Source: a virus. Taken from it: 64,000 bases of DNA. How positions within the stretch are numbered: the stretch's first letter is position 1; each line of letters begins with the position of its first letter. The position numbers were made by a program, and so were the translations under genes. Below, piece after piece: positions 8,971 to 25,569 of the stretch. The DNA is taken from IMG/VR virus record IMGVR_UViG_3300005098_000017, positions 32,001 through 96,000 of that record; one strand, 5' to 3'. The notes below the pieces were generated by a model that saw only the letters and a program-made list of their open reading frames with translations, searched no databases and was not told the DNA's origin.

Positions 8971-8972
8971 TA

Positions 8973-9251
8973 TTATGTAGGTACATGTGCACCTCTTATG
9001 AATTCTTTTAATCTTATGGGTTCATCGTGTAATATGAGGATGCTTGCGTTGTTGCGTGCTATGATATCGCGCCAGAATTCATCCGGTGTGACATATGTAT
9101 TACTTATTATGATGATGCCTTTGATTTGAGCTACTTTCATCCATAGAGGGATGTGCTGCTGAACATATAGGCATGGTATATCTTGTGGTGCTATTATGCT
9201 ATAGATACGGCGGAAGGAGAAGGGGAAGCCGCCACCTCTGCTGGCAGCCAT
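8973..9251 (-). CDS. hypothetical protein
   Basis: ORF only. Confidence 0.45.
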   Translation of the reverse strand: MAASRGGGFPFSFRRIYSIIAPQDIPCLYVQQHIPLWMKVAQIKGIIIISNTYVTPDEFWRDIIARNNASILILHDEPIRLKEFIRGAHVPT

Positions 9252-9616: not shown

Positions 9617-9697
9617 ATTATAATGAAAATTTTATTATCTTCAAGATTTTCTTTTCTTTCTTTCCTCATTGCGATGCCGACAGTTATGGTTTAGTTA

Positions 9698-9710
9698 CCG
9701 CAAAATTGAC
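9698..9710 (-). promoter_or_regulatory. GTCAAT-N4-CGG motif
   Basis: GTCAATTTTGCGG, followed by TAACTAAA as at 13001. Confidence 0.55.
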
Positions 9711-9726
9711 CAAAAAAATTTACGGT

Positions 9727-11703: not shown

Positions 11704-11704
11704 A

Positions 11705-11914
11705 TTATGACCTCCTTGCTAGATCTTCTATATCATCACGGATCATCGCGAGGAACCTATACAGGTCGTCTGCAGATGCTTCGCCTCTTTCGTACTTATC
11801 CAGAAGTGTGACGATTGACTTTCTTAGTTCTATCAGGAAATCGGCGGCTTCATTATCAAACGAGACGGATGTGGCAGCTAGCTCTAACGCCCTATTTATA
11901 TCTATTTTACTCAC
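11705..11914 (-). CDS. hypothetical protein
   Basis: coupled ORF. Confidence 0.6.
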   Translation of the reverse strand: MSKIDINRALELAATSVSFDNEAADFLIELRKSIVTLLDKYERGEASADDLYRFLAMIRDDIEDLARRS

Positions 11915-12132
11915 TTCGTTCTCCCCGTGAGTTTATCAGCCATCTTCGCGGCACATTTTATACAGTACGGCCCGAAGGTTTTTTCGGTCTGAAACGCTCG
12001 ATAGTCATCCTCATCATCGCTGGTTTTTCTTATGTTACCAGCAACGATGAGGAATGCGAGGTCCTTCGGACCATAATTTTTACCACATATTTTACATTTC
12101 CATTTTTTGTTTTTCTTGAATAGCATACTCAT
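11911..12132 (-). CDS. small Zn-finger protein
   Basis: CKIC...CIKC, AGGAGG RBS. Confidence 0.65.
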   Translation of the reverse strand: MSMLFKKNKKWKCKICGKNYGPKDLAFLIVAGNIRKTSDDEDDYRAFQTEKTFGPYCIKCAAKMADKLTGRTK

Positions 12133-12188
12133 CCTCCTTTTCAGGTGAGGCCCCGCTCCTGCCCCACCCCGCCGCCCCCATCAGCTTA

Positions 12189-12626
12189 TTAAGCTTCTTG
12201 GGCGGCCTTCTTCATCGCATAAAATTCCTTGAGCTCTTTTGCGCTCAAGCCCAGCTTAACAGCACCAGTCATAATAACAGGCACCGATACCACAGGTGGC
12301 GCCATCGTTGCGATGATAGCACCAGTTATAGCTCTTCCTACATTCAGCATGGATTTCAGCGTGTAATGTTTTATGTCTTTACATTCCTCAGGTCTTATAT
12401 CCTTGGTTAACGCCGTACTTCCGAGGACGACCTTGGCAACGGGCCCAACGATCGGCAGCAATGTCAGGCCAGCGCCGATAGCCATGGTTGGCTTATCGGC
12501 CTCTATGATCGCGTTTCTTGCCGTTTGATATTTTTCCTTTATGAAGCCGCGGCTTCTTTCTGCTATATCCTTTATCTTTTCGCGCGGCTTCACCTTCTTT
12601 ACTTTCATAGCGAGTTTCTTTACCAC
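12189..12626 (-). CDS. putative membrane protein
   Basis: hydrophobic segments, AAGGAGG RBS. Confidence 0.65.
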   Translation of the reverse strand: MVKKLAMKVKKVKPREKIKDIAERSRGFIKEKYQTARNAIIEADKPTMAIGAGLTLLPIVGPVAKVVLGSTALTKDIRPEECKDIKHYTLKSMLNVGRAITGAIIATMAPPVVSVPVIMTGAVKLGLSAKELKEFYAMKKAAQEA

Positions 12627-12627
12627 A

Positions 12628-12972
12628 TTACACCTCCTTGCTTCTGATTTTTATTAGCTCCTCCTCTATTTTTATATCAGGATCCATCACAAAGAAGATG
12701 AGGCGCGCGTACCTGTTAACAGGATAATCAGGATAACCACCGATTGTTTCCCATGTGTGCAGACATATTATATATGTATCGCTTTTATACACGACCTCAA
12801 GCTCATCATATGTGCAACAGTCTCTTAGCATGTTACCAGAATTAGCTATCCATCTCTGTCCTACTTCTGCTTTTTCTAGGTCACTCCATGTAATCGTAAT
12901 CTCATCGCCCTCTCCATTATAGTCGAGGGCCGCGAGTCTGAATGCAATGTTCTGCTGCACTGTTTCTACCAT
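12628..12972 (-). CDS. hypothetical protein
   Basis: RBS, preceded by motif at 13001. Confidence 0.7.
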   Translation of the reverse strand: MVETVQQNIAFRLAALDYNGEGDEITITWSDLEKAEVGQRWIANSGNMLRDCCTYDELEVVYKSDTYIICLHTWETIGGYPDYPVNRYARLIFFVMDPDIKIEEELIKIRSKEV

Positions 12973-13000
12973 CCTAATACCTCCTTGTTTGTTTTAGTTA

Positions 13001-13013
13001 CCACTAAATTGAC
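13001..13013 (-). promoter_or_regulatory. GTCAAT-N4-TGG motif
   Basis: GTCAATTTAGTGG, 15 nt before AGGAGG. Confidence 0.65.
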
Positions 13014-13025
13014 ACCCGCCGGGCT

Positions 13026-13217
13026 TCACTCCTCCTCATATTCCTCCTTGTAGTATTTTTCCTGATCCGGTAACAATTCTACCAATGTCCCGCAGTATAC
13101 GCATTCATATGGAGGGTTGTCGATCCTGGCATTTTTTCCCGTCCACATTCCACACACAGGACATATCACATTGCCTGTAACGCTTACATCACCTATAACG
13201 GCGATTTTTTCACACAT
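13026..13217 (-). CDS. Zn-ribbon protein (start revised to MCEK)
   Basis: AAGGAGG before ATG at 13217; CPVC...CVYC. Confidence 0.65.
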   Translation of the reverse strand: MCEKIAVIGDVSVTGNVICPVCGMWTGKNARIDNPPYECVYCGTLVELLPDQEKYYKEEYEEE

Positions 13218-13396
13218 TTTTACCTCCTTCCTGCCTTTTTCCTTACTGTTAAACATTATCCTGCGGGGCTTCCGCCCCCACCGCCCGCCCCTTAAAGGCG
13301 GCGGCTTCTTATGTCCTCTGACCCTATGATACACAATATAAACGATGCTGCTAATAATGGTAACACAGCGAGTAACATCTTGATCCTCCTTTTGTG

Positions 13397-13669
13397 TCAG
13401 ATCGATTCCTTTTTCTTCCCAAGCAGTGCACTCAGTTGGATGTATATGCTTATAAGAACGCTCGCGATTAACCCTATTATCATGCCGGTTACCCCGACGA
13501 ACAGGGTAACCCCAACAGCTACCAGAATGCAGCTGATAGCGAAGTCTCTTAAGTAGCGATTATCCTTGAGTCCCTTTATCAGCCCTCGTTTCTTTATCTG
13601 TTTCAGTCCTTTCGTCAGACTTATATACATCCATACTAAGCCCGCGGCTGCTATCAAATATAACAGCAT
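13397..13669 (-). CDS. small membrane protein (start revised to MLLYL)
   Basis: AAGGAGG RBS, hydrophobic segments. Confidence 0.6.
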   Translation of the reverse strand: MLLYLIAAAGLVWMYISLTKGLKQIKKRGLIKGLKDNRYLRDFAISCILVAVGVTLFVGVTGMIIGLIASVLISIYIQLSALLGKKKESI

Positions 13670-13696
13670 GATCACACCTCCTTGCTTTTTTATTCG

Positions 13697-13709
13697 CCAT
13701 TTGATTGAC
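13697..13709 (-). promoter_or_regulatory. GTCAAT-N4-TGG motif
   Basis: GTCAATCAAATGG, 13 nt before AGGAGG. Confidence 0.65.
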
Positions 13710-13979
13710 CGAGCGGTTATGATATCATGGCCGCCAATGCTTCGGTGGCTTCCGGCGGCCCTTCTTTTTCTTTCTCTTGTCCTCAAACACCCTGCCCGGC
13801 TTAATGGGACCGATTACCTCCCTTGATAGGTATTTAATCATTTTCAGCACTTCGCTGCCGGGCTTCTTTCCTTTGCGGCGCTTCCTCTTGCTCATTACCC
13901 ACCGCCTTTGCGAAAAGGGGGGAGGGGGCCCCAAACATCAGGACCTCCTCCCATCTGCTCTGGCTACCCTCAGCTATTC

Positions 13980-14363
13980 TTAAAACGGCGCTTCCTCGTT
14001 ATCTTCCTCCTCAACTGGCTCAGGTGTGGATGCAGGCCTGCTCCGATGCCAGCTCGGACGCATGAACTCACCGATCGCTACTTTACATATCATTTGGAAC
14101 ACTGGAAGGGTGCAGATCTTGGTCTTGCCAAGCTTCACAACCTTACCATCGGATGTGAGGGTCTTGATGGTACCATCGTTTCTTTCATGCATAATTTTCC
14201 ACTCAGGTTTCGCTGCGCACATGGCAACCTCGGTACCATTTAGGCTGATAGAATTTCTGATAGCGTTATTGCTTGTTGAGCGGAGCATGATGAACAACCT
14301 GTTAGGACGTCTTTGAACACTAATACCACAATACGTCTTGTCAGTAATACGGAAGGTAAACAC
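13980..14363 (-). CDS. possible SSB-like protein with acidic C-terminal tail
   Basis: ends EEEDNEEAPF, like bacterial SSB tails. Confidence 0.45.
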   Translation of the reverse strand: MFTFRITDKTYCGISVQRRPNRLFIMLRSTSNNAIRNSISLNGTEVAMCAAKPEWKIMHERNDGTIKTLTSDGKVVKLGKTKICTLPVFQMICKVAIGEFMRPSWHRSRPASTPEPVEEEDNEEAPF

Positions 14364-14389
14364 GCTACACCTCCTTTCTTTTTGGTTTT

Positions 14390-14402
14390 CCAGTTGATTG
14401 AC
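14390..14402 (-). promoter_or_regulatory. GTCAAT-N4-TGG motif
   Basis: GTCAATCAACTGG before AGGAGG. Confidence 0.65.
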
Positions 14403-14407
14403 TATGC

Positions 14408-14788
14408 TTAATTTTGGTTTCCATCTCCCTCGTGTGGACAGTAATATATTTTTACATAGTCGTAGATTCTGCCAAGGCTGTCGCCATAGTCTTTTCTGAA
14501 GATCAGCATTCCGCCTCTGCCGAGCTTGAACCTGACTGTCCTCTTCTTACATTGCGCAAGCCCCGAACTCCAGGAGCGTTCGTGTTTCTCTACGATTTTA
14601 TAGTTTCCTGCTAGGATTCTGGAGTCGGCGCTGAAATTAGCGCCCATTCCGTCCAATTCCTCGACCTCGTGCTCCTCTTCTTTTCCGCATATTTCAATTA
14701 TTATCTCTACGTTCCCCTTTTCCCAGGATTCCCAAGGAAGATCTGGGTACCTTGTCTTGGCTTTTTCTATTACCTTTTTCCTTTCCAT
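14408..14788 (-). CDS. hypothetical protein
   Basis: RBS and upstream motif. Confidence 0.7.
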   Translation of the reverse strand: MERKKVIEKAKTRYPDLPWESWEKGNVEIIIEICGKEEEHEVEELDGMGANFSADSRILAGNYKIVEKHERSWSSGLAQCKKRTVRFKLGRGGMLIFRKDYGDSLGRIYDYVKIYYCPHEGDGNQN

Positions 14789-14815
14789 TTTACCTCCTTT
14801 CTTTGTTTTTTAATA

Positions 14816-14828
14816 CCATTAAATTGAC
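14816..14828 (-). promoter_or_regulatory. GTCAAT-N4-TGG motif
   Basis: GTCAATTTAATGG before AGGAGG. Confidence 0.65.
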
Positions 14829-14989
14829 TTTTTGAGGTAGAATGGTAGCGCTATTAGTCCAGCAATGAGGCCGCCGCATTGGGCAGCTGTTACATTGCCA
14901 GTTAAGATCGCAATGAGAAGTGATGTTGGGAATGCAACCGCGAAGCCGACGGCTGCTCCCCTTAATGAGGCTCTTAATACTCTCTTCAT
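14819..14989 (-). CDS. 56-aa membrane peptide (not in ORF track)
   Basis: AAGGAGG then MKRVLRASLRGAAVGFAVAF...YLKKSI. Confidence 0.6.
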   Translation of the reverse strand: MKRVLRASLRGAAVGFAVAFPTSLLIAILTGNVTAAQCGGLIAGLIALPFYLKKSI

Positions 14990-15255
14990 TTCCCCTCCTT
15001 GTTGATAAACGAGCGCACTGTGGTTATCAATCTCTCCTTAGCCTCCTCGGCGCGCTCCTTAATCTCTTTCTGTCCTATCCTTTTCAATCTCAGGAATCGG
15101 AAGAATCCTATGACTCCAACCGCTGCTAACACGGCACCCACTGTGCCGCCTAACAACAACGCCAATATAGCGGTAACCCAGCATGCAAAGTCGGGCTCAT
15201 CGCTGATTATGTATGGTGCGAAGTAAGCAGGGATGGCCAATATGATCCTATGCAT
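14986..15255 (-). CDS. small membrane protein
   Basis: RBS, hydrophobic. Confidence 0.65.
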   Translation of the reverse strand: MHRIILAIPAYFAPYIISDEPDFACWVTAILALLLGGTVGAVLAAVGVIGFFRFLRLKRIGQKEIKERAEEAKERLITTVRSFINKEGK

Positions 15256-15345
15256 TTTTACCTCCTTCTGATGAGAACATCATAGCTATTATCGTGCCTA
15301 GACAAAAGCCTAGCAAAAAGCTAATATATCCTATATATTCCGGGA

Positions 15346-15537
15346 TCATAGTTCTCTTACCTCCGCTTTTATGTTTTCGAGTCCCTCCTTCTCAATCTTT
15401 TTTACCATGTTTCTGAGGCGGGTTATCATTACCCACCTCCGTATTTCATTGATGATTATGCCGATTCCGATGGCTATGAGGAACAACCCAGCAACTACCA
15501 TTGTGCTTTTTGCAGCTATATCCATTAGAACTACCAT
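15346..15537 (-). CDS. small membrane protein
   Basis: RBS, N-terminal TM segment. Confidence 0.65.
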   Translation of the reverse strand: MVVLMDIAAKSTMVVAGLFLIAIGIGIIINEIRRWVMITRLRNMVKKIEKEGLENIKAEVREL

Positions 15538-15729
15538 TTATACCTCCTTTGACTCCAATAATGCTTTCTGAAGCGCGTCTATGATGAATTGCGCTTCGTG
15601 ATTCCATAACTTCTGGACGAAGATAGCACCGTCCCGATAGTTGATAAACGAGATCATGATCTTCCGAGGGTCATACTTGTCATTAACCGTTTGCACCGAT
15701 ATCTCGAGATCTTCTGATTTATACTCCAT
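15538..15729 (-). CDS. hypothetical protein
   Basis: RBS and upstream motif. Confidence 0.65.
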   Translation of the reverse strand: MEYKSEDLEISVQTVNDKYDPRKIMISFINYRDGAIFVQKLWNHEAQFIIDALQKALLESKEV

Positions 15730-15753
15730 TATTATTACCTCCTTTTTTTTATT

Positions 15754-15766
15754 CCATCAGATTGAC
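15754..15766 (-). promoter_or_regulatory. GTCAAT-N4-TGG motif
   Basis: GTCAATCTGATGG before AGGAGG. Confidence 0.65.
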
Positions 15767-15883
15767 CCTCCTCCCCTCCTTGGTATGGCGGGGCTTATGG
15801 TGGGACAAGGGGAGAGAGCTTGGTGAGGGAGACCTTTTAAGGGATCAAGGTGGGAGAGGGGAGGAGAGCCGTGTTAATCCCTC

Positions 15884-16123
15884 TTACTTATAATGTATTT
15901 TGATTAGAGCCTGCTTTCCATACTTCCATCTAAGCCTCCGCTTCAGTTCACTAACGTCCGCAGCAAAAACCTCGTGGAGGCCGTCAGTTCTGGTAAACTT
16001 CCAGCATTTTATGTTACCAACCTGTGTCGGTTTCCCGTGTGGAACATAAGCATGTACTGTCTCCTTCGTCCTCACGGAGATTATATCTATGTTTTTTACT
16101 AACGGATAAAATTTCAACGACAT
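15884..16123 (-). CDS. hypothetical protein (start revised to MSLKFY)
   Basis: AAGGAGG RBS downstream of pseudoknot. Confidence 0.65.
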   Translation of the reverse strand: MSLKFYPLVKNIDIISVRTKETVHAYVPHGKPTQVGNIKCWKFTRTDGLHEVFAADVSELKRRLRWKYGKQALIKIHYK

Positions 16124-16148
16124 AGAATACCTCCTTTTTTTTAATGTG

Positions 16149-16201
16149 AAGCCCGCCATTAAATCGAAGCGCGCAACCCGGCGGGCTTAGGTCGCGCGCT
16201 T
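16149..16201 (-). ncRNA. 5'-UTR H-type pseudoknot PK1
   Basis: stem AAGCGCGCGACC/GGUUGCGCGCUU; loop AAGCCCGCC pairs with GGCGGGCUU. Confidence 0.7.
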
Positions 16202-16214
16202 ATTTTTTATTCCA

Positions 16215-16227
16215 CCATTTTATTGAC
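16215..16227 (-). promoter_or_regulatory. GTCAAT-N4-TGG motif
   Basis: GTCAATAAAATGG just upstream of PK1. Confidence 0.65.
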
Positions 16228-16886
16228 TATAGCCAGTCGACTTTAGCATATGGCTTGCCGTTTACATACCACCTCTTCTCGGACGTTATGAGCACGGTTT
16301 CATAGCGCTCAAGTGGGTAATCGTTACGCTCCCTCACCACGACAGCTTTAGGCTCAGGGATGATGGCATCGGTACCATGTGGAGGTGTGGGAGGGAAAAT
16401 TGAAACGAGCTGACGTGGAAGGATGACAAGAGAAAGGTGTTTGCCTTTCTGTTTGATGCGACTCCTGATGGTCTTCTCGAGACCCTTCTCGACGATTACG
16501 TAGCCATACGAATCCGCAGCCTCCTGGGCGAGTGTGTTCGCCATTTTATTCCCTGTTCTGGCTGTGTGTTTTACAATAACCTCCTTATGCTGGTTATCAG
16601 CGTAGTACCTAGCCAGCTCATATAATTCCATAAGCTCAGGCTTCTTAATATCATATTCTTGGTTAAACTGCTTCACCACTAACTGTGAGTCGCTGTGTAT
16701 TGTGGTATCACCCTGGATGTACTGGCTAATGTATGTCGCAAGAACTAGTGCTGCCCATTCAGCCTCGTTGTTTGTTGCCTCCCCAATGGGTATTGATAGT
16801 GATATACCAACCTCCGGAATATATATCCCAATCCCAGCGGGACCGGGATTGCCTTTTGATGAGCCATCAATGTAAATGTTAGTCAT
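16227..16886 (-). CDS. rnhA: ribonuclease HI with C-terminal extension
   Basis: [31 protein letters not shown] (last Asp replaced by Asn). Confidence 0.85.
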
Positions 16887-16900
16887 AATACCTCCTTTAT

Positions 16901-17323
16901 TTATGGTTTAACTTTTCGTAAGCCGAGGCAACCTATCGGTCGTATGCTTCCACTGCTGGTCTTTTCATATACAGGATGAGCAATCGTGTATAACTTGTCT
17001 ACGTTAGGTAGGTTGAGAGCAACTGCTGCAGAAGCATATTGATTACTAACAATTATTATATCAGCATCATCAGGGATGGGATCAATATCCTGCACCCTCT
17101 GTGTTATAACTGGGATCATAACCTCATCGTTCACTGGACATTCGTAAAAGATGCTCGGAAGTAATTCAGTTTCATGATGGACGTTCAGAAGGGTTCCAGA
17201 GGGTGGAATTATGATAACTAGCTTGGTTTTTCCAGGTTCTATGAAGTATTTCCTGTGTTCACTTATGTAAACAGCATCCTCAAAAATACATATCTCGTGA
17301 GGAGTGCAGTTTAAGATTTTCAT
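16901..17323 (-). CDS. conserved phage hypothetical protein
   Basis: ILNCTPHEI...IPPSG...IIVS...IGC pattern; RBS. Confidence 0.75.
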
Positions 17324-17345
17324 TACATACCTCCTTTTATTAGGC

Positions 17346-17404
17346 GGGCCTCATTACACCCCATGCAGAGCAGCAGGGCGAGGCCCTTAACCCTGAAGCT
17401 CTGC
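17346..17404 (-). ncRNA. 5'-UTR H-type pseudoknot PK2
   Basis: stems GCAGAGC/GCUCUGC and CAGGGU/GCCCUG; loop GGGCCUC pairs with GAGGCCC. Confidence 0.6.
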
Positions 17405-17419
17405 GAAGAAAGAGAGCTA

Positions 17420-17752
17420 TTAGGACAAGCGTTCTGCTTCCTGTCTAATCCGAACGGCATCCCTTACTACCTCTAACAGCGAAGGCGGTATAACCCTATT
17501 GTTCGAGGTTTTCCCAGTGCGCAAATCAACTGCGACAGCACAATCATGCTCGTAAAAGTATACTATATCCCCATCCGGGAAGAATGTTCCATTAGCAGTA
17601 GCAACATTATAAATCAGATCGTTGGTGTATTCGCCGGGATCGCGATATGGTGTATAATGATCCTGAGCGTCCGGTGTTTCACAACCGGTAGTGCTTCTCA
17701 CACATACATCACACCTGCCACTTCTACACAGACGGCACTTATCAAATAACAT
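17420..17752 (-). CDS. Cys-rich hypothetical protein
   Basis: RBS downstream of PK3. Confidence 0.7.
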   Translation of the reverse strand: MLFDKCRLCRSGRCDVCVRSTTGCETPDAQDHYTPYRDPGEYTNDLIYNVATANGTFFPDGDIVYFYEHDCAVAVDLRTGKTSNNRVIPPSLLEVVRDAVRIRQEAERLS

Positions 17753-17778
17753 AATACCTCCTTATTTTAATGTTTTAT

Positions 17779-17833
17779 GCCCGCCATTAGAACCAAGCCA
17801 GGTGAGGCCGGCGGGCTTAGCCCTACCCGGCTT
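17779..17833 (-). ncRNA. 5'-UTR H-type pseudoknot PK3
   Basis: stem AAGCCGGGU/ACCUGGCUU; loop AAGCCCGCC pairs with GGCGGGC. Confidence 0.7.
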
Positions 17834-17842
17834 TTTTAATTT

Positions 17843-17855
17843 CCAGCTGATTGAC
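17843..17855 (-). promoter_or_regulatory. GTCAAT-N4-TGG motif
   Basis: GTCAATCAGCTGG upstream of PK3. Confidence 0.65.
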
Positions 17856-18221
17856 CTATACAAGAGATGGTCCAACTGCATCCTGAACCTGAGGCTTTCC
17901 ATACTCAAGCTTCCACCCATTCTTCGGTCGTAAATTTCTCTTGAACCATTCGAACCATGCACGATCCATGACAACGATCTTCTTACTTCTTCTGAATGCA
18001 ACTGCAATCCACTTGCGGTTACCAGTCCTGTTAATCCTGAAGAACCATACGATATCATTAGCATGTAGTTTACCACTGCGTACTAGCCTGGCCCACTGGC
18101 TGCTCTTCTCAGGATTCTGAGCAGCCAATACAAATGTGTAACTATTTTTCCACCTCGCTATAGAGGTGGTGCCTCCCAGAATCTTGGGGAGGTTGATTTT
18201 TAGAAACTGAGTCAATGACAT
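17856..18221 (-). CDS. basic hypothetical protein (start revised to MSLTQF)
   Basis: GAGGAGG RBS downstream of PK4. Confidence 0.7.
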   Translation of the reverse strand: MSLTQFLKINLPKILGGTTSIARWKNSYTFVLAAQNPEKSSQWARLVRSGKLHANDIVWFFRINRTGNRKWIAVAFRRSKKIVVMDRAWFEWFKRNLRPKNGWKLEYGKPQVQDAVGPSLV

Positions 18222-18245
18222 AATACACCTCCTCTTTTGGAGGTT

Positions 18246-18303
18246 GCCTGCCACTTTTACCCACAGATAAGGCGAGGCCGGCAGGCTTTACCCCGCCTTA
18301 TCT
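18246..18303 (-). ncRNA. 5'-UTR H-type pseudoknot PK4
   Basis: stem AGAUAAGGCG/CGCCUUAUCU; loop AAAGCCUGCC pairs with GGCAGGC. Confidence 0.7.
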
Positions 18304-18310
18304 TATCACT

Positions 18311-18323
18311 CCAGCTCATTGAC
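18311..18323 (-). promoter_or_regulatory. GTCAAT-N4-TGG motif
   Basis: GTCAATGAGCTGG upstream of PK4. Confidence 0.65.
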
Positions 18324-18412
18324 TCCATCACGAGCCAACAAGCCGGCCAAACCCTCCGGCACTCTTGCGGCACCGCTCCTCGCAGGCCGCACACAGGGGA
18401 GGAGAGGCTTGG

Positions 18413-18479
18413 GGAGGCCTCTTAGACCCTCTATGAGGGAGCTCCAGCGCCACGTCAAGGCGGGCCTCCAGTGCTGGAG
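18413..18479 (-). ncRNA. HDV/CPEB3-like ribozyme fold, copy A
   Basis: P1 CUCCAGC/GCUGGAG, P2 GGAGGCC/GGCCUCC, P3 GCC/GGC, L3 UUGACGU, P4 CCCUC/GAGGG, J4/2 UCUAA. Confidence 0.8.
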
Positions 18480-18577
18480 TAGCCCCCCGGTGCGGGGGCT
18501 TCATTTTTTTCACCTCCTTTCTAGCGGGATGAACTAGCCCGGCCATCTAGCCCATCCCGCGGTTTAAGGTTTAACCT

Positions 18578-20983
18578 TTAATCAAGTTTCCAGAAGTTGA
18601 GCCAGAATTCGCGATCGGCAGTAGCAAGAGGATGAAGACCAACAGGGGTTTTGATTCCAAGAATCCGCGCGAGCTGCCAGTTGCGCTTCTTACCAGTATG
18701 CAGTTCTACAAGAAAGCGTACATGTGCTTCAAGATCAGATTCAGTACCGGCAACAATAGCCAAGAAATCGCTCTCAGCGACAGTAAGAGATTTCCAAGTG
18801 GTAAGAATCGCCTGAGGTTCAAATCTAGCAAGAAGCCTGCGGAAACGCCTGTTTAGCCTCCGGAAGTTCCTAGTAAGAAGTACACGAAGTTCAGATACTT
18901 TACTCGCAAGGAAGCGCCGACGCCTGTCGAGCTCTCTGCGCCGCCTGCCAAGGGTAGCCAGAGCATCAGAAAGGTGATCAAGCCTAGGTAGCAGCCACTT
19001 TTCCATTTTTCGCCTCAGAACTTCGTTTCTGATCCCAGATGCTAGGAACCTGACTTTAGTTTCAGGTCTCGCATTAGCGAAGAGTCTACGGCTCCGATTA
19101 ACTACCGTATCAATCGCCGTTACTTTCTCTGCAAGAGCATTCACTTCATTCTCTATCTTCCGTATTCGAGAGAGCGTCCGTCCGAACATGCGCCTCCTTA
19201 TGCGATCCCACTTGAGGAACAATGCCTTAACTTCTGGATCAATGGTGCCATCAGGAATAAGATCCTTAAGAGACCTAACCTCTGGCTCAGCAAACTCAAC
19301 TTCAGGAATAAATTCAGCAAGAGGACCTGTTGGAGTTATTGCTACTGGATCCGCCTTCGCAGTCCTATTAGCGATCATTTGAGTAACAGTATCAAGCCTG
19401 GCAGTCGTACTCGCGAGTAGATGCAGTCCCGCTTCTACCTCATGACGAAGCTCCGGTTCTTTACCATTAGCAAGATTCACTGCAGCTTGGAGTAGCGCTC
19501 CAGTTCTCGCAACAAGATCCATATTAAGTTCAGTATCAGAAAGAAGCATTCGGGTAAAACCAGCATCAGCTCTCGCAATCATTTCCTTACCCAGCTCAAT
19601 ATTTTCCACTTCGGTACTAGGATCCATTCTCCACTCTCCGAAAGATATCTCCTTTATCCGGCTTCGTACGCTATCGAAGAATTCCTTAGCAACGAGAGGT
19701 TCCTTGAAGACCTTGGATGCCGCGGCGAGAGCCACTTTGTCGCCATCGGCATCCCATCCGCTAGGCATATCTGCAGGGTGTACCAGAATCGCATGCGCAC
19801 GATGGTCAACAATAATAGGAAGGATAAGAGTATCACCAGGCAAGATGGGCGACTTCTGTATGAGTAGGAGTTCTCCATCTTTCAGACCAAGCATCCGTGC
19901 AATCACAGGAGGAATAACAGCAGTGCCGGGATGTGCATTCTGAAATCCCAGATAGAAGCCCGGGCCTAGTCTCAACTTCCGAAGTGCAATCTTTAAGTGG
20001 TCCAGAAGCACTCTCCGCAGGAAGCCTGCCTCCTTTATGAGGCCGAATTTCCGCAGAATATCAGCAGTCAGAGTCAGCACTGCACTAGGTTCATTGATCG
20101 GATCAGCGTTTTTAACAAGGATATCAGCCGCTACCTCAGGATCAGAAAAACCATTAATAGCTTCAGCAATCTGCTCCTGAATCCGTTCAACAAACTCAGG
20201 CGCTGGATTAACATTCCATCCGAGTTTCCTTGGTAGAAGGAACCAGCGCGGCAGAGCTTGGCTGAGACTGATGCCGCCCGCGAATACGGCACCAACCTCA
20301 TGCAGCATGATGGTTCGCCCGAGTTCGAGTACGAAGCGCCGCCTCTTGATGAGTTTTGCGGTGTCAGCATCAGCAACGATATCAGTCCCTGTTTCCAGCT
20401 CCGTGAGGACCTCATCTGCAAGAGCTTCATTTCCAAGATACAACATCAGCCTCTGGAACCCAACTCTGCCGGGAAGAACTGGTACCGCTATCCCTTTCAG
20501 ACCAATAGCAGTCACTTTAAATCCATTCTTCACAAGAGCACGGGTAACCTTAGAAACCTCAGCCTCTGTAGGAGCATATGCTGCTGCCACAAGTTTTGTA
20601 AACCGTTCGCTAACGAAGAAGATCCCATCCACATTCATTTTCATATTGAGCTTGAGACCACGGATGCGAAGATCCATACCAGCCACACGTTCCGGCTTGA
20701 AATCCCAGCCTTTATTCGGAATTTCCGGCGTTGTCATCATCTGGATGCGCTTTCCAGGAAGAGATCTCAGATCAAATTCAGGATCACCGAGAATATTCGC
20801 AATCACTCTATTAACAGTCTCTATAGCAGAAGTAGGAACCACCTTGAAGATCCTACAATCTGGAATCATAGTAGGCTTCATTGGAAGATCAGAGTTCAGA
20901 TCAGGATCAAATGCGAAGAAGACACTAGCACCAGCTTCAGTAAATAACGCTTGCAGAGGAGACCTCGGTATTCTTTCCATCAT
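18578..20983 (-). CDS. single-subunit two-barrel (DPBB) RNA polymerase, eukaryotic RdRP/YonO-like (start revised, 801 aa)
   Basis: motifs DGIFFVS, GLKG, KSPILPGD and SGWDADGD in the same order as cellular RdRP DGIGxIS, GYKG, KNPCLHPGD and SGxDLDGD; AAGGAGGTG RBS before 20983. Confidence 0.8.
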   Translation of the reverse strand: MMERIPRSPLQALFTEAGASVFFAFDPDLNSDLPMKPTMIPDCRIFKVVPTSAIETVNRVIANILGDPEFDLRSLPGKRIQMMTTPEIPNKGWDFKPERVAGMDLRIRGLKLNMKMNVDGIFFVSERFTKLVAAAYAPTEAEVSKVTRALVKNGFKVTAIGLKGIAVPVLPGRVGFQRLMLYLGNEALADEVLTELETGTDIVADADTAKLIKRRRFVLELGRTIMLHEVGAVFAGGISLSQALPRWFLLPRKLGWNVNPAPEFVERIQEQIAEAINGFSDPEVAADILVKNADPINEPSAVLTLTADILRKFGLIKEAGFLRRVLLDHLKIALRKLRLGPGFYLGFQNAHPGTAVIPPVIARMLGLKDGELLLIQKSPILPGDTLILPIIVDHRAHAILVHPADMPSGWDADGDKVALAAASKVFKEPLVAKEFFDSVRSRIKEISFGEWRMDPSTEVENIELGKEMIARADAGFTRMLLSDTELNMDLVARTGALLQAAVNLANGKEPELRHEVEAGLHLLASTTARLDTVTQMIANRTAKADPVAITPTGPLAEFIPEVEFAEPEVRSLKDLIPDGTIDPEVKALFLKWDRIRRRMFGRTLSRIRKIENEVNALAEKVTAIDTVVNRSRRLFANARPETKVRFLASGIRNEVLRRKMEKWLLPRLDHLSDALATLGRRRRELDRRRRFLASKVSELRVLLTRNFRRLNRRFRRLLARFEPQAILTTWKSLTVAESDFLAIVAGTESDLEAHVRFLVELHTGKKRNWQLARILGIKTPVGLHPLATADREFWLNFWKLD

Positions 20984-21039
20984 ATCACCTCCTTTCCGCC
21001 GCGGATTTCGTTGCCCTCGGTGCGGCACTCCGAGGGTCG

Positions 21040-21124
21040 CCGGGCTTCGAGCGTCATTGGTGCCAAGGCTGGCCATAGAATGAAGCCCGGAAATTCTATG
21101 GCCATGGCCGGGCGCCTTGACACC
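21040..21124 (-). ncRNA. elaborated 5'-UTR pseudoknot PK5 (polymerase leader)
   Basis: stems GGUGUCAAGGC/GCCUUGGCACC and UGGCCAUAGAAU/AUUCUAUGGCCA; loop CCGGGCUUC pairs with GAAGCCCGG. Confidence 0.65.
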
Positions 21125-21155
21125 TCTGCTCTTTCGCGCATTTTATTTAACCTTA

Positions 21156-21596
21156 TTATCGATTAAATTCTCCATCCAATACAGCAAGCAGTAATCTTTG
21201 GAGTCTTCTTGGATCGGGTAAACCATATGCAATTCCATAGATTGGGGACCATGAATCCACATTCACCCTAACTGTTGTTCCCAAAATTTTGAATTCGAAA
21301 GCATAATCATCGATAGTATAGCTACCCTCCATTACCGATTGGAAAATGAGTGCGTCTACTAGATCCTCACAAGCCCACTCCGGATGTTGCTCAAGAATAA
21401 CTCTCTGGATCTCTAAAGTATCACACCAACCCACAATAACTCTACGTTCATCATCCATAACGTACCCCGACCGCAGATGCAAATTGTACCATTTCTCACC
21501 CACCTTGGCAGTTACCCAAGGCGGTGAGAAGTAGTAGTCGCCGACTTTAACTTTGTCGGCGATCCAGTCACCGATTACGTCCCACAACCATGACAT
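21156..21596 (-). CDS. hypothetical protein
   Basis: AAGGAGGTG RBS just after ribozyme B. Confidence 0.75.
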   Translation of the reverse strand: MSWLWDVIGDWIADKVKVGDYYFSPPWVTAKVGEKWYNLHLRSGYVMDDERRVIVGWCDTLEIQRVILEQHPEWACEDLVDALIFQSVMEGSYTIDDYAFEFKILGTTVRVNVDSWSPIYGIAYGLPDPRRLQRLLLAVLDGEFNR

Positions 21597-21627
21597 TTTA
21601 CACCTCCTTTAGTTTGACTTTCTTCTC

Positions 21628-21699
21628 GAGGGACTCTTAGATCCCGCATAAGCGGGAAGCCCCGGCGCCACGACAAGGCGGTCCCTCAAAAAGCCGGGG
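21628..21699 (-). ncRNA. HDV/CPEB3-like ribozyme fold, copy B
   Basis: P1 CCCCGGC/GCCGGGG, P2 GAGGGAC/GUCCCUC, L3 UUGUCGU, P4 UCCCGC/GCGGGA, UCUAA; begins immediately after the stop codon of 21700-22170. Confidence 0.8.
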
Positions 21700-22170
21700 T
21701 TAACTCAATTTGACATCATTATTATCCTTCTCTTTCTTTATCCACTCTATCAATTCATCCACTAGGCGCTCCACATTATAATCATCAATAATAAGAAGCG
21801 CCCTCCTGACCTTGTAGCCGAGCACCTCATGCGCTTTTAGCACATGCCTCGGCATCCAAGGCCAGGTCTCATTGTATCCCCCATTATATTTGATTTGGAG
21901 AAGGATTACCTCCTTCTTATGGGGGATACCAATGCTGACGTCGATTTTAAATACGACGTCAGCTTTACTCCCGACAGGATAGTCTATTAATTTCCATCCC
22001 GCCGGAAGCTTGGAGGATAGTTCTTCAATGAATCTATCCTCCGCTTCGAAGCCAGCTCTATGCGCCTCATGTGCGATAGAGCTAACCTCGAAATCCGGGC
22101 GGATTATTTCATGACATTCCGCCCAGAATTTTCGCGCTATAGTGCGGGCCTTCTCCATTTCATTTCTCAT
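21700..22170 (-). CDS. possible PD-(D/E)XK nuclease-fold protein
   Basis: GFEAEDRF...D...IDV...LQIK spacing. Confidence 0.4.
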   Translation of the reverse strand: MRNEMEKARTIARKFWAECHEIIRPDFEVSSIAHEAHRAGFEAEDRFIEELSSKLPAGWKLIDYPVGSKADVVFKIDVSIGIPHKKEVILLQIKYNGGYNETWPWMPRHVLKAHEVLGYKVRRALLIIDDYNVERLVDELIEWIKKEKDNNDVKLS

Positions 22171-22233
22171 TTATTACTCCTCCATATGCATTCCGCCAAG
22201 GAAGTGACAAGTCCCCAAGGTCTTCTACCGTTG

Positions 22234-23070
22234 TCATAATATCACCTCCCTTACTTTGATAACAGGGTTAACCCAATCAACAAAATGATAGATTTTGTTT
22301 ATACGAGGGGGACAACCTTGGTCTCCCTTTATTTCGATATCATTATGATCAGCTATCCATACCTCATGAAACTGATTAAACAGTTTCTTAAATATAGGCG
22401 CCGCCTCCATCTCATATCCCGGCTTAACCTCTATATTATTCGCCAGAAGAACATTATCGTTACCGGTCACCGCTACCATAAGCGCACGAATCTTATTGTT
22501 TTCCACATCTTCCATCACATATGTGATGGCATCACCAAACGTCATGGTGTGCCATCCGTCATGGAAGATGTGTGCGCAGCAATGTACATGGAACCCTAAG
22601 AACGGAAATCTTGGATCTTTACGCGATAGTGGACGAAGTAACCAGCGTTCCGTTCTAATTACAGGTAAATCTGTTATGTCCACAGCCGGTAATGAGATCC
22701 ATTCCCGAAATAATTTCTGAATTTTACCACTATGAAGGTCTATTTTTGTATACCTTGGATGCCACCGCCAAAATTCTTTCCAAAATTCGCGGTGGCCATA
22801 TCGTCTAGCCCAAGATGTCACCAAGTTTTCCCTCGGTGACATCCTCTCATCGAGGCCTGTTTCATTAGCGGCCTCAATGAGATGGGGGCTTAGTGGCCCC
22901 CTAAACTTAAAGATATACCCTGCAAATTCTGGCCGCAAAAGTGGCGTTAGAAGCCACAAGGCATCGCGGCCGATTTTATTTAAATTATCACGGCCGTATG
23001 CCCTTATGGCTATCTCGATAAGAGGTTGCAATGTCTTATTCTTCATCAAGCCTTCCAAATATGCATTCAT
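22234..23070 (-). CDS. hypothetical protein (LG..CC..NNIE motif, PcfJ-like by weak resemblance)
   Basis: AAGGAGG RBS; family call from recalled motif only. Confidence 0.55.
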   Translation of the reverse strand: MNAYLEGLMKNKTLQPLIEIAIRAYGRDNLNKIGRDALWLLTPLLRPEFAGYIFKFRGPLSPHLIEAANETGLDERMSPRENLVTSWARRYGHREFWKEFWRWHPRYTKIDLHSGKIQKLFREWISLPAVDITDLPVIRTERWLLRPLSRKDPRFPFLGFHVHCCAHIFHDGWHTMTFGDAITYVMEDVENNKIRALMVAVTGNDNVLLANNIEVKPGYEMEAAPIFKKLFNQFHEVWIADHNDIEIKGDQGCPPRINKIYHFVDWVNPVIKVREVIL

Positions 23071-23107
23071 TTTTACCTCCTTTATTTTTATACATATTCT
23101 CCATTTT

Positions 23108-23166
23108 TGCCCGCATTAGTTTACCAAGGGCACCATCTGACCTGCGGGCATTGATCAGATGGCGCC
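23108..23166 (-). ncRNA. 5'-UTR H-type pseudoknot PK6
   Basis: 14-bp stem GGCGCCAUCUGAUC/GGUCAGAUGGUGCC; loop AAUGCCCGCA pairs with UGCGGGCA. Confidence 0.7.
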
Positions 23167-23232
23167 TATATACAAAATGGGCACCGTATAGTCATGGTAA
23201 CAATACGGTGCCCTCACAACATCCCCTTTTAT

Positions 23233-23310
23233 TAGGGTGCTCTTAGACCCTTAGGGATTGGACCTAAGGGAGCCCCTCCACCACGTCAAGGTGGCACCCT
23301 ATCGGAGGGG
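23233..23310 (-). ncRNA. HDV/CPEB3-like ribozyme fold, copy C
   Basis: P1 CCCCUCC/GGAGGGG, P2 UAGGGUGC/GCACCCUA, P3 ACC/GGU, L3 UUGACGU, P4 CCCUUAGG/CCUAAGGG, UCUAA. Confidence 0.8.
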
Positions 23311-23363
23311 TAGCGGGGTCTTGGACCCCGCTCTTGACTCTTGAGGCCGGCCGGTTTATTTTT

Positions 23364-23570
23364 TTAATATTTCCTGTAATCATGATACAAATGGATTATA
23401 CTTTCATACCTGCCAAATATTTTGACAGGCATAGCATGCAAATCTGTTACTTTCATGCCTTCATAGAAGAATTGACCTTCTCCAAAATACTTATGGAGAA
23501 GGTCTGTTTCCTTTATAGGATGATCTAGCAAGAACAAAACTCCTTCTTTTATAAACCCAATCACCGGCAT
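23364..23570 (-). CDS. 68-aa cassette protein (start revised to MPVIGF)
   Basis: AGGAGG directly after PK7. Confidence 0.7.
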   Translation of the reverse strand: MPVIGFIKEGVLFLLDHPIKETDLLHKYFGEGQFFYEGMKVTDLHAMPVKIFGRYESIIHLYHDYRKY

Positions 23571-23582
23571 GATAAACCTCCT

Positions 23583-23643
23583 CGCCGCACCTTGGTTCAA
23601 CTCCCAGTATGCATACGGTGCGGCACTTATATGCATACTGGGA
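23583..23643 (-). ncRNA. 5'-UTR H-type pseudoknot PK7
   Basis: 15-bp stem UCCCAGUAUGCAUAU/GUAUGCAUACUGGGA; loop AAGUGCCGCACC pairs with GGUGCGGCG. Confidence 0.75.
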
Positions 23644-23659
23644 TACCGGCCGGCCTTAT

Positions 23660-23734
23660 GGACACTCTTAGACCCTTAGGGATTGGACCTAAGGGAGCCC
23701 TCCAGCCACGTCAAGGCGGTGTCCTTCTGGAGGG
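23660..23734 (-). ncRNA. HDV/CPEB3-like ribozyme fold, copy D
   Basis: P1 CCCUCCA/UGGAGGG, P2 GGACAC/GUGUCC, P3 GCC/GGC, L3 UUGACGU, same P4 as copy C, UCUAA. Confidence 0.8.
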
Positions 23735-23786
23735 TAGCAAGGCCATCATGTGAGACCTTGCTTTGGCTTGGGCGGCAAATCCTTCC

Positions 23787-23993
23787 TTAAAATTCGTAAT
23801 ACCAGACTTTTTTTCCAATTCTTTCAATATATTTGGCAAGTTTCCTTACTTTTCTAGTAGGTCTACCACCTGTGTAAGCCATACCTGATACCAAAGGCCT
23901 AAGAAGACTGACTCTGCCATCTGGAAATAATTCCCCAACAAACCTGATCAAATCCTTGCCTATCCAGAGATCAACTATAACTGTCCTTGTCAT
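23787..23993 (-). CDS. 68-aa cassette protein
   Basis: AAGGAGG directly after PK8. Confidence 0.7.
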   Translation of the reverse strand: MTRTVIVDLWIGKDLIRFVGELFPDGRVSLLRPLVSGMAYTGGRPTRKVRKLAKYIERIGKKVWYYEF

Positions 23994-24006
23994 TTTTTCC
24001 TCCTTT

Positions 24007-24067
24007 CGCCGCGGTCAGTTTTAACCACCAGTGGGCCCACACCGCGGCATTTATGGTACCCACTGGC
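24007..24067 (-). ncRNA. 5'-UTR H-type pseudoknot PK8
   Basis: stem GCCAGUGGGU/GCCCACUGGU; loop AAAUGCCGCGGU pairs with ACCGCGGCG. Confidence 0.75.
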
Positions 24068-24083
24068 TTGCCGCCCAAGCCAT

Positions 24084-24154
24084 CGGACGCTCTTAGACCT
24101 AGCCACAAGGCTAGGAGCCCCTCCACCACGTCAAGGTGGCGTCCGTCGGAGGGG
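24084..24154 (-). ncRNA. HDV/CPEB3-like ribozyme fold, copy E
   Basis: P1 CCCCUCC/GGAGGGG, P2 CGGACGC/GCGUCCG, P3 ACC/GGU, L3 UUGACGU, P4 CCUAGCC/GGCUAGG, UCUAA. Confidence 0.8.
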
Positions 24155-24207
24155 TAGCAAGACCCCAAGGGGCCTTGCCTCGTCTACGGGGGCGCCAATA
24201 GACCGTA

Positions 24208-24492
24208 TCAATAAACATCAACTAAGCACTTGATATACGGCCTGATTAAATACACATAATCTCCAATCCTCTTTATATTGTGGCTCGAAACAAGTTGCGA
24301 TTTAACACATACTTTCGCATGACTCGGAACTCTTATAACGTACCCAAAGTATAATCTTTGGCCAAGGAGGATCAAATCCTCCTTGTCCAAAACGATGACC
24401 CTGTGTGTGTAACCTTCATAGCGATCATCAGGGTATATTACTGCTGCAAATTCTTGCTCATGTATTCTCACATCTTCAATCCACACTATCAT
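24208..24492 (-). CDS. 94-aa cassette protein
   Basis: AAGGAGG directly after PK9. Confidence 0.7.
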   Translation of the reverse strand: MIVWIEDVRIHEQEFAAVIYPDDRYEGYTHRVIVLDKEDLILLGQRLYFGYVIRVPSHAKVCVKSQLVSSHNIKRIGDYVYLIRPYIKCLVDVY

Positions 24493-24507
24493 TTTATCCT
24501 CCTTTTT

Positions 24508-24568
24508 CGCCGCGCCTTGGTTCTACGCCCAGCATGTACGCGGCGCGGCATTTACGCACATGCTGGGC
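24508..24568 (-). ncRNA. 5'-UTR H-type pseudoknot PK9
   Basis: 15-bp stem GCCCAGCAUGUGCGU/GCGUACAUGCUGGGC; loop AAAUGCCGCGCC pairs with GGCGCGGCG. Confidence 0.75.
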
Positions 24569-24686
24569 TGGCGCCCCCGCAATCCCCTATTAGCCGAGGA
24601 AGCAAATCAAAAATCAAGGGGGCAGGGGGGTCGAAATACAATCCGACCCCCTCAAAATCCACAATAGAGACCTCCTGAATTTTTTG

Positions 24687-24720
24687 CCGGTTTTTTGACC
24701 CTTATAGGCCTACGATTGAC
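24687..24720 (-). promoter_or_regulatory. two variant GTCAAW motifs heading the cassette array
   Basis: GTCAATCGTAGG and GTCAAAAAACCGG. Confidence 0.35.
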
Positions 24721-24743
24721 TCCATCAAATGGGGAATTACCTC

Positions 24744-24771
24744 TTGACATGTGCATTCAAATATTTAATAT
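24744..24771 (+). promoter_or_regulatory. sigma70-type promoter
   Basis: TTGACA-N16-TAATAT. Confidence 0.5.
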
Positions 24772-24810
24772 TTAGTATGTAGGTATTAAATTATAACAAG
24801 GAGGTTGGAT

Positions 24811-24969
24811 ATGTTGGTATTTAGGAGGTATACGCATCCTAGGGAGGTTCGCTGGTTGGGCTGGATAGAGACTCATGATGGTTGTTGTGTTGGGTTTATT
24901 AGGCTTGATGGTAGGGTTGTATTTGATTGGGATTCTGGGTTCTCTGGTAGTAATAGTAGTGTTAATTGA
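24811..24969 (+). CDS. 52-aa protein (not in ORF track)
   Basis: AAGGAGG RBS, MLVFRRYTHPREVRWLGWIE..., own promoter and terminator. Confidence 0.7.
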   Translation: MLVFRRYTHPREVRWLGWIETHDGCCVGFIRLDGRVVFDWDSGFSGSNSSVN

Positions 24970-24994
24970 AGCATAGGGTATATGTTGGTATGTT

Positions 24995-25024
24995 AAGCCG
25001 GCCGCTTTTGAGGCCGGTTTTTTT
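24995..25024 (+). terminator. intrinsic terminator
   Basis: GCCGGCC/GGCCGGT stem plus T-run. Confidence 0.7.
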
Positions 25025-25569
25025 ATTTTCTCTTATAAGTACTATCTAAGTAACTATGTGATCAGTCTACTGACACATGGCAGACTTGGGGTTAGTGAAA
25101 AATGGACCTCTTGTAGCTTGTTTGTGACTATGTGGGTTGGTGGAACATTCTCATCCGTATGCACCATGGTTAGCGAAAGTGTTAAGGTTGGTGCATGTGA
25201 TTGAGAGTGTTGTTGGTAGGTATTAGTCCGTTGATATATAATATAATGGGTAGCCCATGGGAAATATATCTTAACTGTGGGCTGCCTTTATGACAATTTG
25301 GACACCAGTGGGCTGCCCTTTTTTAAGTGTGTGGGCTAACCGTAAGGCTTCCTGTTTCAGCGAGGGGTGGCTAGGCTTGTGTGAAGCCCCGCCAGAGCCC
25401 TCTCCGCAGGCGTAAGTTCGGGCCGCCCCGGCCCTACCACCCGTGAGGTGGGTGAGCCCGTTTTATCTGTTTTAATACTCATATTCCTTAACATGGCAAG
25501 CAAGATCTTTGACTTATTTAGTGACTTGATCGATTTACTTGTCTGTCCCTTATTATCCACATTAACTTA

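Follow-up and report, generated by a model that had tools for sequence, protein, structure and literature searches.

Perreault et al. (2011) observed that clusters of hammerhead ribozymes flank single, variable genes in prophages and cleave both in vitro and in vivo (PMC3088659). It was proposed that these clusters process phage transcripts into single-gene mRNAs; circular products were sought and none was found (PMC3088659). Reviews repeat the mRNA-processing idea for hammerhead and twister ribozymes (PMC6765202). For hepatitis delta virus (HDV)-type ribozymes, Kienbeck et al. (2024) found that phage copies lie mostly behind tRNAs, and that 526 'isolated' non-coding copies, co-oriented with genes, are unexplained (PMC10879173). 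The present analysis concerns an array of five HDV-like ribozyme folds on the minus strand of a 64,000-nt stretch of phage DNA (the window), which corresponds to bases 32001–96000 of the 147,433-bp IMG/VR virus record IMGVR_UViG_3300005098_000017 (completeness estimate 84%). Three small cassettes, each holding one open reading frame (ORF) between complementary arms, and a polymerase gene lie along this array. For most of the small ribozymes encoded in bacterial and phage genomes, a function has yet to be established; the locus offers a concrete, testable job for such orphan phage ribozymes, namely operon self-processing into standardised mRNA modules.

The array resembles the clusters of Perreault et al. 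in that one phage transcript carries several self-cleaving ribozymes around individual genes that vary and are often accessory (PMC3088659). Correspondingly, five co-oriented copies were found here, and at least nine layouts with different ORFs occur among relatives. Unlike hammerheads, which can cut on either side, the HDV-like ribozymes of this locus would be retained on the downstream product; furthermore, closing arms, leader pseudoknots and a fixed 3′ hairpin are not described for the hammerhead clusters (PMC3088659). A first-pass annotation, made from the sequence alone, ranked the cassettes as the top candidate for a new system, which is too strong a claim given that ribozyme clusters flanking phage genes have been published (PMC3088659). 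What is new is the ribozyme class, its variant core and the joint presence of a closing helix and a pseudoknot leader; searches of the literature turned up no HDV-like ribozyme array that has closing arms.

The Theta and other minimal HDV-like ribozymes of Caudoviricetes share with this locus an HDV-type double pseudoknot in double-stranded DNA phages (PMC10879173). Theta ribozymes have a G1 cleavage site, a minimal P4 helix and an adjacent tRNA 3′ end (PMC10879173), whereas here position +1 is C, P4 spans 5–8 bp, no tRNA was detected in the window by ARAGORN, and the array lies between ORFs. No copy has its predicted cut 5 nt or less from the 3′ end of a tRNA, and every copy follows an ORF. 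Similarly, antigenomic HDV and the Ackermannviridae ribozyme share with these folds a P1 of 7 bp, a P3 of 3 bp, an L3 loop of 7 nt and the J4/2 sequence C-U-A-A-G, but differ in the first P1 pair (C-G here), in P1.1 (G(L3)-C here, not C(L3)-G) and in J4/2, which is longer here (PMC13635239).

HDV-like ribozyme folds along the putative operon

The cassette region appears to be part of an operon of ~6.4 kb on the minus strand, ~24.7–18.3 kb of the window, in a phage of at least 147 kb, with the five ribozymes distributed along it. A core pattern search returned five copies of HDV-topology double pseudoknots, all on the minus strand, and covariance model R1, built from these five, detected no further copies in the 147-kb genome. 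In the direction of transcription, the copies are ribozyme E at 24084–24154 (predicted cut 24155/24154, J4/2 cytosine at 24096, 79 bits with model R1, supported by covariation), ribozyme D at 23660–23734 (J4/2 cytosine at 23671), ribozyme C at 23233–23310 (23246), ribozyme B at 21628–21699 (21640) and ribozyme A at 18413–18479 (18425). Ribozyme A is preceded by A(−1) and a hairpin at 18481–18500, the whole element spanning 18413–18500; ribozyme B lacks an upstream hairpin and occupies the same position in the relatives that cover it. P1 measures 7 bp, P2 6–8 bp, P3 3 bp and P4 5–8 bp, and the copies show the nested double pseudoknot in which P1 crosses P2, P3 and P4 are nested, and P1.1 joins L3 and J1/4.

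Relatives were gathered via the 801-aa polymerase, which gave three close homologues, via a conserved 156-aa gene, which gave more, and via the metagenome contig L025, yielding about ten contigs. The five copies of the window have 96.9% paired cells and 11 pairs changed on both sides, compared with 36–53% pairing in slid controls. With the copies of the relatives and of three distant contigs added to those of this phage, the comparison covered 21 copies and gave 96.0% paired cells and 13 pairs changed on both sides, with slid partners at 36–54%. Per helix, pairing across the 21 copies is 91% for P1, 97.6% for P2, 98% for P3, and 100% for the base of P4 and for P1.1; the P1 value is independent of the search model, which left P1 out. 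The HDV-type fold proposed in the first-pass annotation is borne out, with covariation supporting P1, P2, P3, P1.1 and P4.

The presumptive active-site elements are equally constant. The J4/2 sequence UCUAAGA is invariant in 21 of 21 copies and contains a cytosine of the general-acid type followed by A-A; the J4/2 of antigenomic HDV reads C-U-A-A-G. In L3, which reads UUGNCGU, neither the first U nor the sixth G varies, and these two match the bases that form the reverse wobble in HDV. The role of this L3 guanine at the metal site has been described (PMC13635239, PMC3774820). P1.1 would consist of one G-C pair and one U-U pair, and a P1.1 with one Watson–Crick and one U-U pair also occurs in the solved, fast-cleaving Ackermannviridae ribozyme (PMC13635239). 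In the copy at L025:1013–1093, U replaces C at the fifth L3 position (UUGAUGU), which may reflect either a weakened copy or a sequencing variant.

Pattern scans extended the search beyond these contigs. In IMG/VR, five loci were returned, of which two are real and distant; in metagenomes, only L025, L093 and L099 were real among 120 loci, the remainder being chance matches; and the pattern was not found in species genomes. Single copies of the same ribozyme subtype, with identical L3 and J4/2, occur at L001:6825–6891 and L002:2552–2619 in AT-rich viral contigs, where each ends a conserved stretch of ~450 nt without an obvious ORF and lies directly before an ORF.

Two local arrangements were also observed. 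Ribozyme B begins directly after the TAA stop codon of the 156-aa gene (21699–21702), such that the cut message would end at the stop. At 18501–18520 on the minus strand, a strong Shine–Dalgarno (SD) sequence and an ATG stand right before hairpin A and ribozyme A and are kept in all relatives; the frame that follows, through ribozyme A, varies among relatives, and no protein is conserved.

Closing arms, hairpins and leaders of the cassettes

The coordinates that the first-pass annotation gave for arms and hairpins all agree with a minus-strand reading of 22900–24900, and the perfect complementarity of 11, 15 and 12 bp that it noted between the arms holds. In cassette E (slot 1), the 5′ arm at 24569–24579, or 24568–24582 when G-U pairs are included, is the perfect complement of the 3′ arm at 24187–24197, which begins 9–10 nt past the stop codon; the helix is 11 bp, or 15 bp counting G-U pairs. 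In cassette D (slot 2), the 5′ arm at 24068–24082, located 1–2 nt beyond P2 of ribozyme E, pairs with the 3′ arm at 23764–23778 over 15 bp, or 16 bp with one G-U pair. In cassette C (slot 3), the 5′ arm at 23645–23656 is the perfect complement, over 12 bp, of the 3′ arm at 23344–23355. The D and C arms were tested against shuffles of the 3′ flank, and both helices were matched by none of 300. Furthermore, the D helix is present in the minimum free energy and centroid folds of the 420-nt unit 24154–23735, which has a z-score of −3.7.

Variants of the arms in the roughly ten relatives never break pairing, all changes being compensatory or G-U-compatible. In slot 1, four variants are C/U or G/A transitions that each create a G-U pair, whereas on the other strand they would give A-C mismatches. 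In slot 2, the 3′ arm has compensatory variants in L006, L143, L146 and L011. These include a multi-base compensatory replacement, GGCGGCAAG with UUUGCCGCC versus GUCCUGCCUU with AAGGCAGGGC; in addition, a G-U pair becomes A-U in L143, and L146 and L141 have a both-sided change. The slot 3 arms are invariant in the relatives. The first-pass annotation had staked its proposal in advance on covariation of the arms in relatives, which they do display. The geometry is also fixed, with the ATG 73–78 nt after the end of the 5′ arm and the 3′ arm starting 3–12 nt past the stop codon. No significant arms were detected in the two larger units, from C to B and from B to A. A leader-gated ribozyme was considered as well and rejected, the complementarity of 3′ and 5′ arms to adjacent ribozymes being no greater than in shuffles.

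Each cassette ends in a GC hairpin of the form AGC…GCU followed by one A before the ribozyme. These elements lie at 24155–24179 in cassette E (hairpin 24156–24179, A(−1) at 24155, −17.1 kcal/mol), at 23735–23762 in cassette D (hairpin 23736–23762, −15.0 kcal/mol) and at 23311–23332 in cassette C (hairpin 23312–23332, −18.1 kcal/mol). Together with the hairpin of ribozyme A, the four sites listed earlier as ending in GCU-A were thus recovered, with energies of −15 to −18 kcal/mol. A genome-wide family of AGC…GCU hairpins was rejected as a candidate, its GC-rich members being confined to ribozymes within the 147-kb genome.

The 5′ untranslated regions (UTRs) of the cassettes carry H-type pseudoknots at 24508–24568 (E), 24007–24067 (D) and 23583–23643 (C), all on the minus strand. 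In E, stem S1 has 15 bp and stem S2 9 bp, the latter ending 4 nt before the SD at 24498–24503; in C, S2 abuts the SD at 23577–23582. The leader of the next unit, 23108–23213, comprises a hairpin at 23179–23213 and a pseudoknot at 23108–23166 and stands before a 278-aa ORF at 22234–23070; it also heads different ORFs in L006, L011, L025 and L141. Covariation was counted on four co-linear copies, an alignment of all copies with MAFFT being structurally inconsistent. In these four, 96 of 96 cells are paired and eight pairs are changed on both sides, which upholds the pseudoknot leaders of the first-pass annotation. A generic scan of 15.5–25 kb found six such pseudoknots on the minus strand and one on the other strand, against 0–1 in shuffles. 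The pseudoknots are a general leader design of the operon region and head ribozyme-free genes too. As a separate observation, a GC hairpin that precedes AUUUUGUAUAUAG or AUAUUAUAG and then a pseudoknot leader, seen at 23179–23213 of the window and at L011:5330–5370, recurs before several larger ribozyme-free genes; this recurring hairpin with AUUUUGUAUAUAG or AUAUUAUAG could be a processing or promoter element.

The cargo of the cassettes consists of a 94-aa ORF in E (24208–24492; 38% identical to its L011 orthologue), a 68-aa ORF in D (23787–23993) and a 68-aa ORF in C (23364–23570; identical in L006, L143 and L145). Pfam and PHROGs assign no family to the cassette ORFs, except for a KH domain in the ORF of one relative. 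The ORFs had been described as unrelated to one another, but distant paralogy links the 94/98-aa type with the 96/98-aa type found in relatives; the 68-aa ORFs and the 74-aa ORF are unrelated to these two types. Measured between the starts of successive ribozymes, the units E to D and D to C are 420 and 424 nt long, in agreement with the ~420 nt predicted for them. The description of the units as lying between two ribozymes fits the later ones; the first has only the operon leader upstream.

Cassette order and content, which the earlier annotation had suggested comparing across related phages, differ in nearly every relative. L007, L147 and L148 lack small upstream cassettes; L011, L141, L146, L144 and L025 have two each, and the window, L006 and L143 have three each. 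The same slot holds different ORFs across relatives, and its members can be unrelated; slot 1, for example, contains the 94-aa ORF in the window versus 74–77-aa ORFs in L006 and L141, with the arms unchanged. Ribozymes B and A, in contrast to this variable content, flank the polymerase block in all relatives wherever a contig covers those positions. Identity between the window and L011 is 86% in the 5′ UTR and 86% in the 3′ UTR plus ribozyme, compared with 58% in the ORF and 75% in the polymerase gene. The RNA structures, by this comparison, are better conserved than the genes they frame, while cassette content has been reshuffled between relatives, and it is the structures rather than the cargo genes that selection acts on. 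Taken across the relatives, the double-pseudoknot folds, closing helices, leader pseudoknots and 3′ hairpins are, judged by sequence and comparison, conserved RNA structures of the minus strand.

A recombinant ribozyme at L006:2780–2860 illustrates how reshuffling may occur. Its 5′ half, including the 5′ strand of P2, is of C type and its 3′ half, together with the next arm, is of D type, and P2 is maintained by three G-U pairs. The parental layouts are represented by L025 and the window. This chimera therefore points to recombination within the ribozyme repeat, and homologous DNA recombination inside the ~55-nt identical ribozyme core would explain the reshuffling, making an RNA-level mechanism unnecessary.

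Proposed self-processing and its alternatives

The first of three options offered by the first-pass annotation, stable processed mRNAs, is the one that the evidence favours. In its present form, that of a self-processing operon yielding insulated, end-protected monocistronic mRNAs, it is given a somewhat better than even chance. One long early message would be split into single-gene messages by the five HDV-type ribozymes, each cutting its own 5′ edge during transcription, after the A that trails the GCU-ended hairpin. The product would begin with a compact ribozyme fold bearing a 5′-OH and end in a GC hairpin bearing a 2′,3′-cyclic phosphate, and nucleases that need free ends would act poorly on both. 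A helix of 12–16 bp from the start of the 5′ UTR to the 3′ UTR would, in each of the three small cassettes, loop out leader and ORF, shielding both UTRs and stopping the cargo from disturbing neighbouring ribozymes, while the pseudoknot would show the SD in a constant context. Small accessory genes that evolve fast would thereby be expressed from plug-and-play modules, with the repeated ribozyme cores doubling as DNA recombination sites that swap cassettes. The earlier proposal that both ends of a unit are held together did not survive: each unit would keep the 71–78-nt upstream ribozyme at its 5′ end. Because HDV-type cleavage at the 5′ edge leaves the ribozyme on the unit, the arms would join UTRs, not termini.

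Cleavage, stabilisation and insulation would follow from known HDV-type chemistry and from the layout of the parts. Several points weigh against a self-processing operon. P1 opens with C-G in 16 of the 17 distinct copies in which this pair was scored and with U-G in the other, in place of a G-U wobble, and the Watson–Crick pair of P1.1 is inverted relative to HDV. Rfam gave no relevant match over 18000–25500, either at gathering score or at E up to 10. A cut by ribozyme B right behind a stop codon looks costly for a stable message, and processing in itself does not require the arms, which the two larger units lack. The missing wobble is a difference and no disproof, because active R2 ribozymes place no constraint on the sequence of P1 (PMC3774820). 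Self-cleavage by the variant core is considered likely; if it is active, searches for HDV-like ribozymes could use a wider sequence definition that admits its C-G first pair and inverted P1.1 pair. In RiboJ-type insulators, a ribozyme and hairpin standardise mRNA ends whatever the cargo, and in Tornado-type designs, a stem holds ribozyme-made ends. The combination of ribozyme and hairpin, arms and pseudoknot leader would match synthetic insulators in a natural setting and could be put to the same use; its new element is a selected 5′–3′ closing helix, which compensatory changes preserve even as one enclosed gene gives way to another. RiboJ and Tornado parts are engineered, and the Tornado-type design loses both its ribozymes and has its termini brought side by side by the stem, whereas here neither holds.

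Other roles for the closing helices have to be weighed against self-processing. In rRNA operons, with their processing stems, and in T7 early RNA, with its RNase III sites, flanks pair in a long precursor, which is cut into gene-sized pieces; a protein cuts within the duplex there, whereas here the predicted cut is made by RNA and lies outside a shorter duplex. By analogy, the closing helix, maybe stacked on the 3′ hairpin and P2, might itself be an RNase III-type substrate, with the cut trimming ribozyme and hairpin and leaving a mature mRNA with ordinary ends. A perfect duplex of 12–16 bp that joins sequences 350–440 nt apart and lies 1–10 nt from two further helices would suit such a processing stalk. 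However, bacterial RNase III usually needs roughly two helical turns, which the closing helices fall short of; a second endonuclease step would be redundant, as the ribozymes already set both ends; the cleavage site is unmarked in the sequence; and no phage RNase III turned up, no search aimed at RNase III having been made. A processing stalk is accordingly judged unlikely. Circular mRNAs, the second option of the first-pass annotation, would arise if the arms gathered the UTRs and a host ligase of the RtcB type sealed the cyclic phosphate to the 5′-OH, leaving an internal SD to be translated. Ends of 5′-OH and 2′,3′-cyclic phosphate are RtcB substrates, so the predicted end chemistry fits, and the closing helices are under selection. 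Such messages would be exonuclease-proof, a natural counterpart of engineered ribozyme-plus-stem circularisation, and, if real, the first case of a bacteriophage that naturally expresses proteins, here small accessory ones, from circular mRNAs. The probability of circles is nevertheless kept low, because the 5′-OH nucleotide is paired in P1 of the retained ribozyme while a separate hairpin carries the 3′ end, such that the arm does not juxtapose the termini; because ligation would rebuild the hairpin–A–ribozyme junction, which is expected to recut; because arms are present even in the first cassette, upstream of which no ribozyme lies, and circles cannot explain those arms; and because RtcB was not found in the 147-kb record, itself an estimated 84% complete. 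Circular products were also raised for clustered hammerheads by Perreault et al., and none was found there (PMC3088659).

The inverted repeats and modules might instead act in DNA, as recombinase or inversion sites of integron-like cassettes whose RNA folds are incidental. Cassette order and content do vary between close relatives, a recombinant module exists, and a tnpB gene lies 2 kb upstream. The arm variants, however, pair through G-U and would work only in RNA of the minus strand, and the helices of ribozymes and pseudoknots covary. No integrase was found in the locus, which does not classify as an integron, and no relative has an inverted cassette; ordinary homologous recombination in the 55-nt identical core would be enough for the shuffling. 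Sites acting in DNA are therefore regarded as very improbable. The third option of the first-pass annotation was that an RdRP-like polymerase (RdRP, RNA-dependent RNA polymerase) copies panhandle-closed units in a deltavirus-like manner, or drives RNA-based cassette gain and shuffling. Panhandles act as promoters for some viral RdRPs, which the panhandle-closed units recall, and the polymerase has a DxDGD motif and nearest Atlas clusters that carry the RdRP family PF05183 (score 0.95, 193–201 shared features). YonO, the characterised phage member of this type, is, however, DNA-dependent (PMC5467207). A candidate promoter motif for the polymerase lies at downstream gene boundaries, at 8958–18325, and polymerase relatives at 38–40% identity lack the ribozyme. 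Antisense signals and a constraint on unit length left no sign, the units ranging from 420 to 507 nt, and the chimeric ribozyme of a relative is a DNA recombinant. Amplification or shuffling through RNA thus has a next to negligible probability, and that option is set aside.

The polymerase gene and its surroundings

The polymerase gene of 801 aa (18578–20983, minus strand) lies between ribozymes B and A, and the ribozyme block thus includes the polymerase gene itself. Its GWDADGDKV segment is invariant in six homologues, and only three close homologues were found among 5.8 billion proteins. Searches of Pfam, PHROGs and PDB and by tblastn gave no match, no relatives were found in IMG/VR and species genomes, and an AlphaFold model with a predicted local distance difference test (pLDDT) score of 49 is too poor for fold comparison. 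From its motif and nearest clusters, the protein is plausibly a YonO-like enzyme of the YonO/RdRP two-barrel type. The co-occurrence of ribozyme and polymerase that had been suggested as a check holds in the roughly ten close relatives where covered, but not in the relatives at 38–40% identity (L134–L136), which have no such ribozyme even with filters off. The ribozyme is therefore a trait of the phage clade, not of the polymerase family.

The motif GAGTCAAT-N4-YGG has seven minus-strand copies at 8958–18325 and none at 18.4–24.7 kb; nine copies occur in the window, a number reached in 0 of 100 shuffles. The GAGTCAAT-N4-YGG motif is a candidate promoter for the phage polymerase. No terminator-like site was found on the minus strand among the cassettes. 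Because motif and terminators are absent there, the ribozyme block would be a stretch without internal promoters or terminators. Copies of (N)AGTCAAT-N4-YGG sit at gene boundaries downstream of the polymerase gene, outside the ribozyme block. Within the polymerase transcript, an unpaired 10-nt bulge in the 5′ UTR (GCCCGGCCAU, 21104–21113, minus strand) complements a conserved hairpin loop of the 3′ UTR (AUGGCCGGGC, 18538–18547); an A-to-G change in relatives retains a wobble in the GCCCGGCCAU/AUGGCCGGGC pairing, and the match is only marginal when compared with shuffles.

Among deposited phages, neither megablast at the DNA level nor tblastn at the protein level found a match to this phage. 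The source record encodes a terminase, a portal protein, a ribonucleotide reductase, YopX, RNase H and TnpB, as well as a ligase with a LigD-type phosphoesterase domain. The gene for the large terminase subunit (window 53842–56388) contains a Hint/intein-like insert. A 658-aa protein encoded at 9727–11703 on the minus strand combines LigD-type 3′-phosphoesterase and ligase OB domains, has a weak match to the RNA_ligase family and is kept in relatives.

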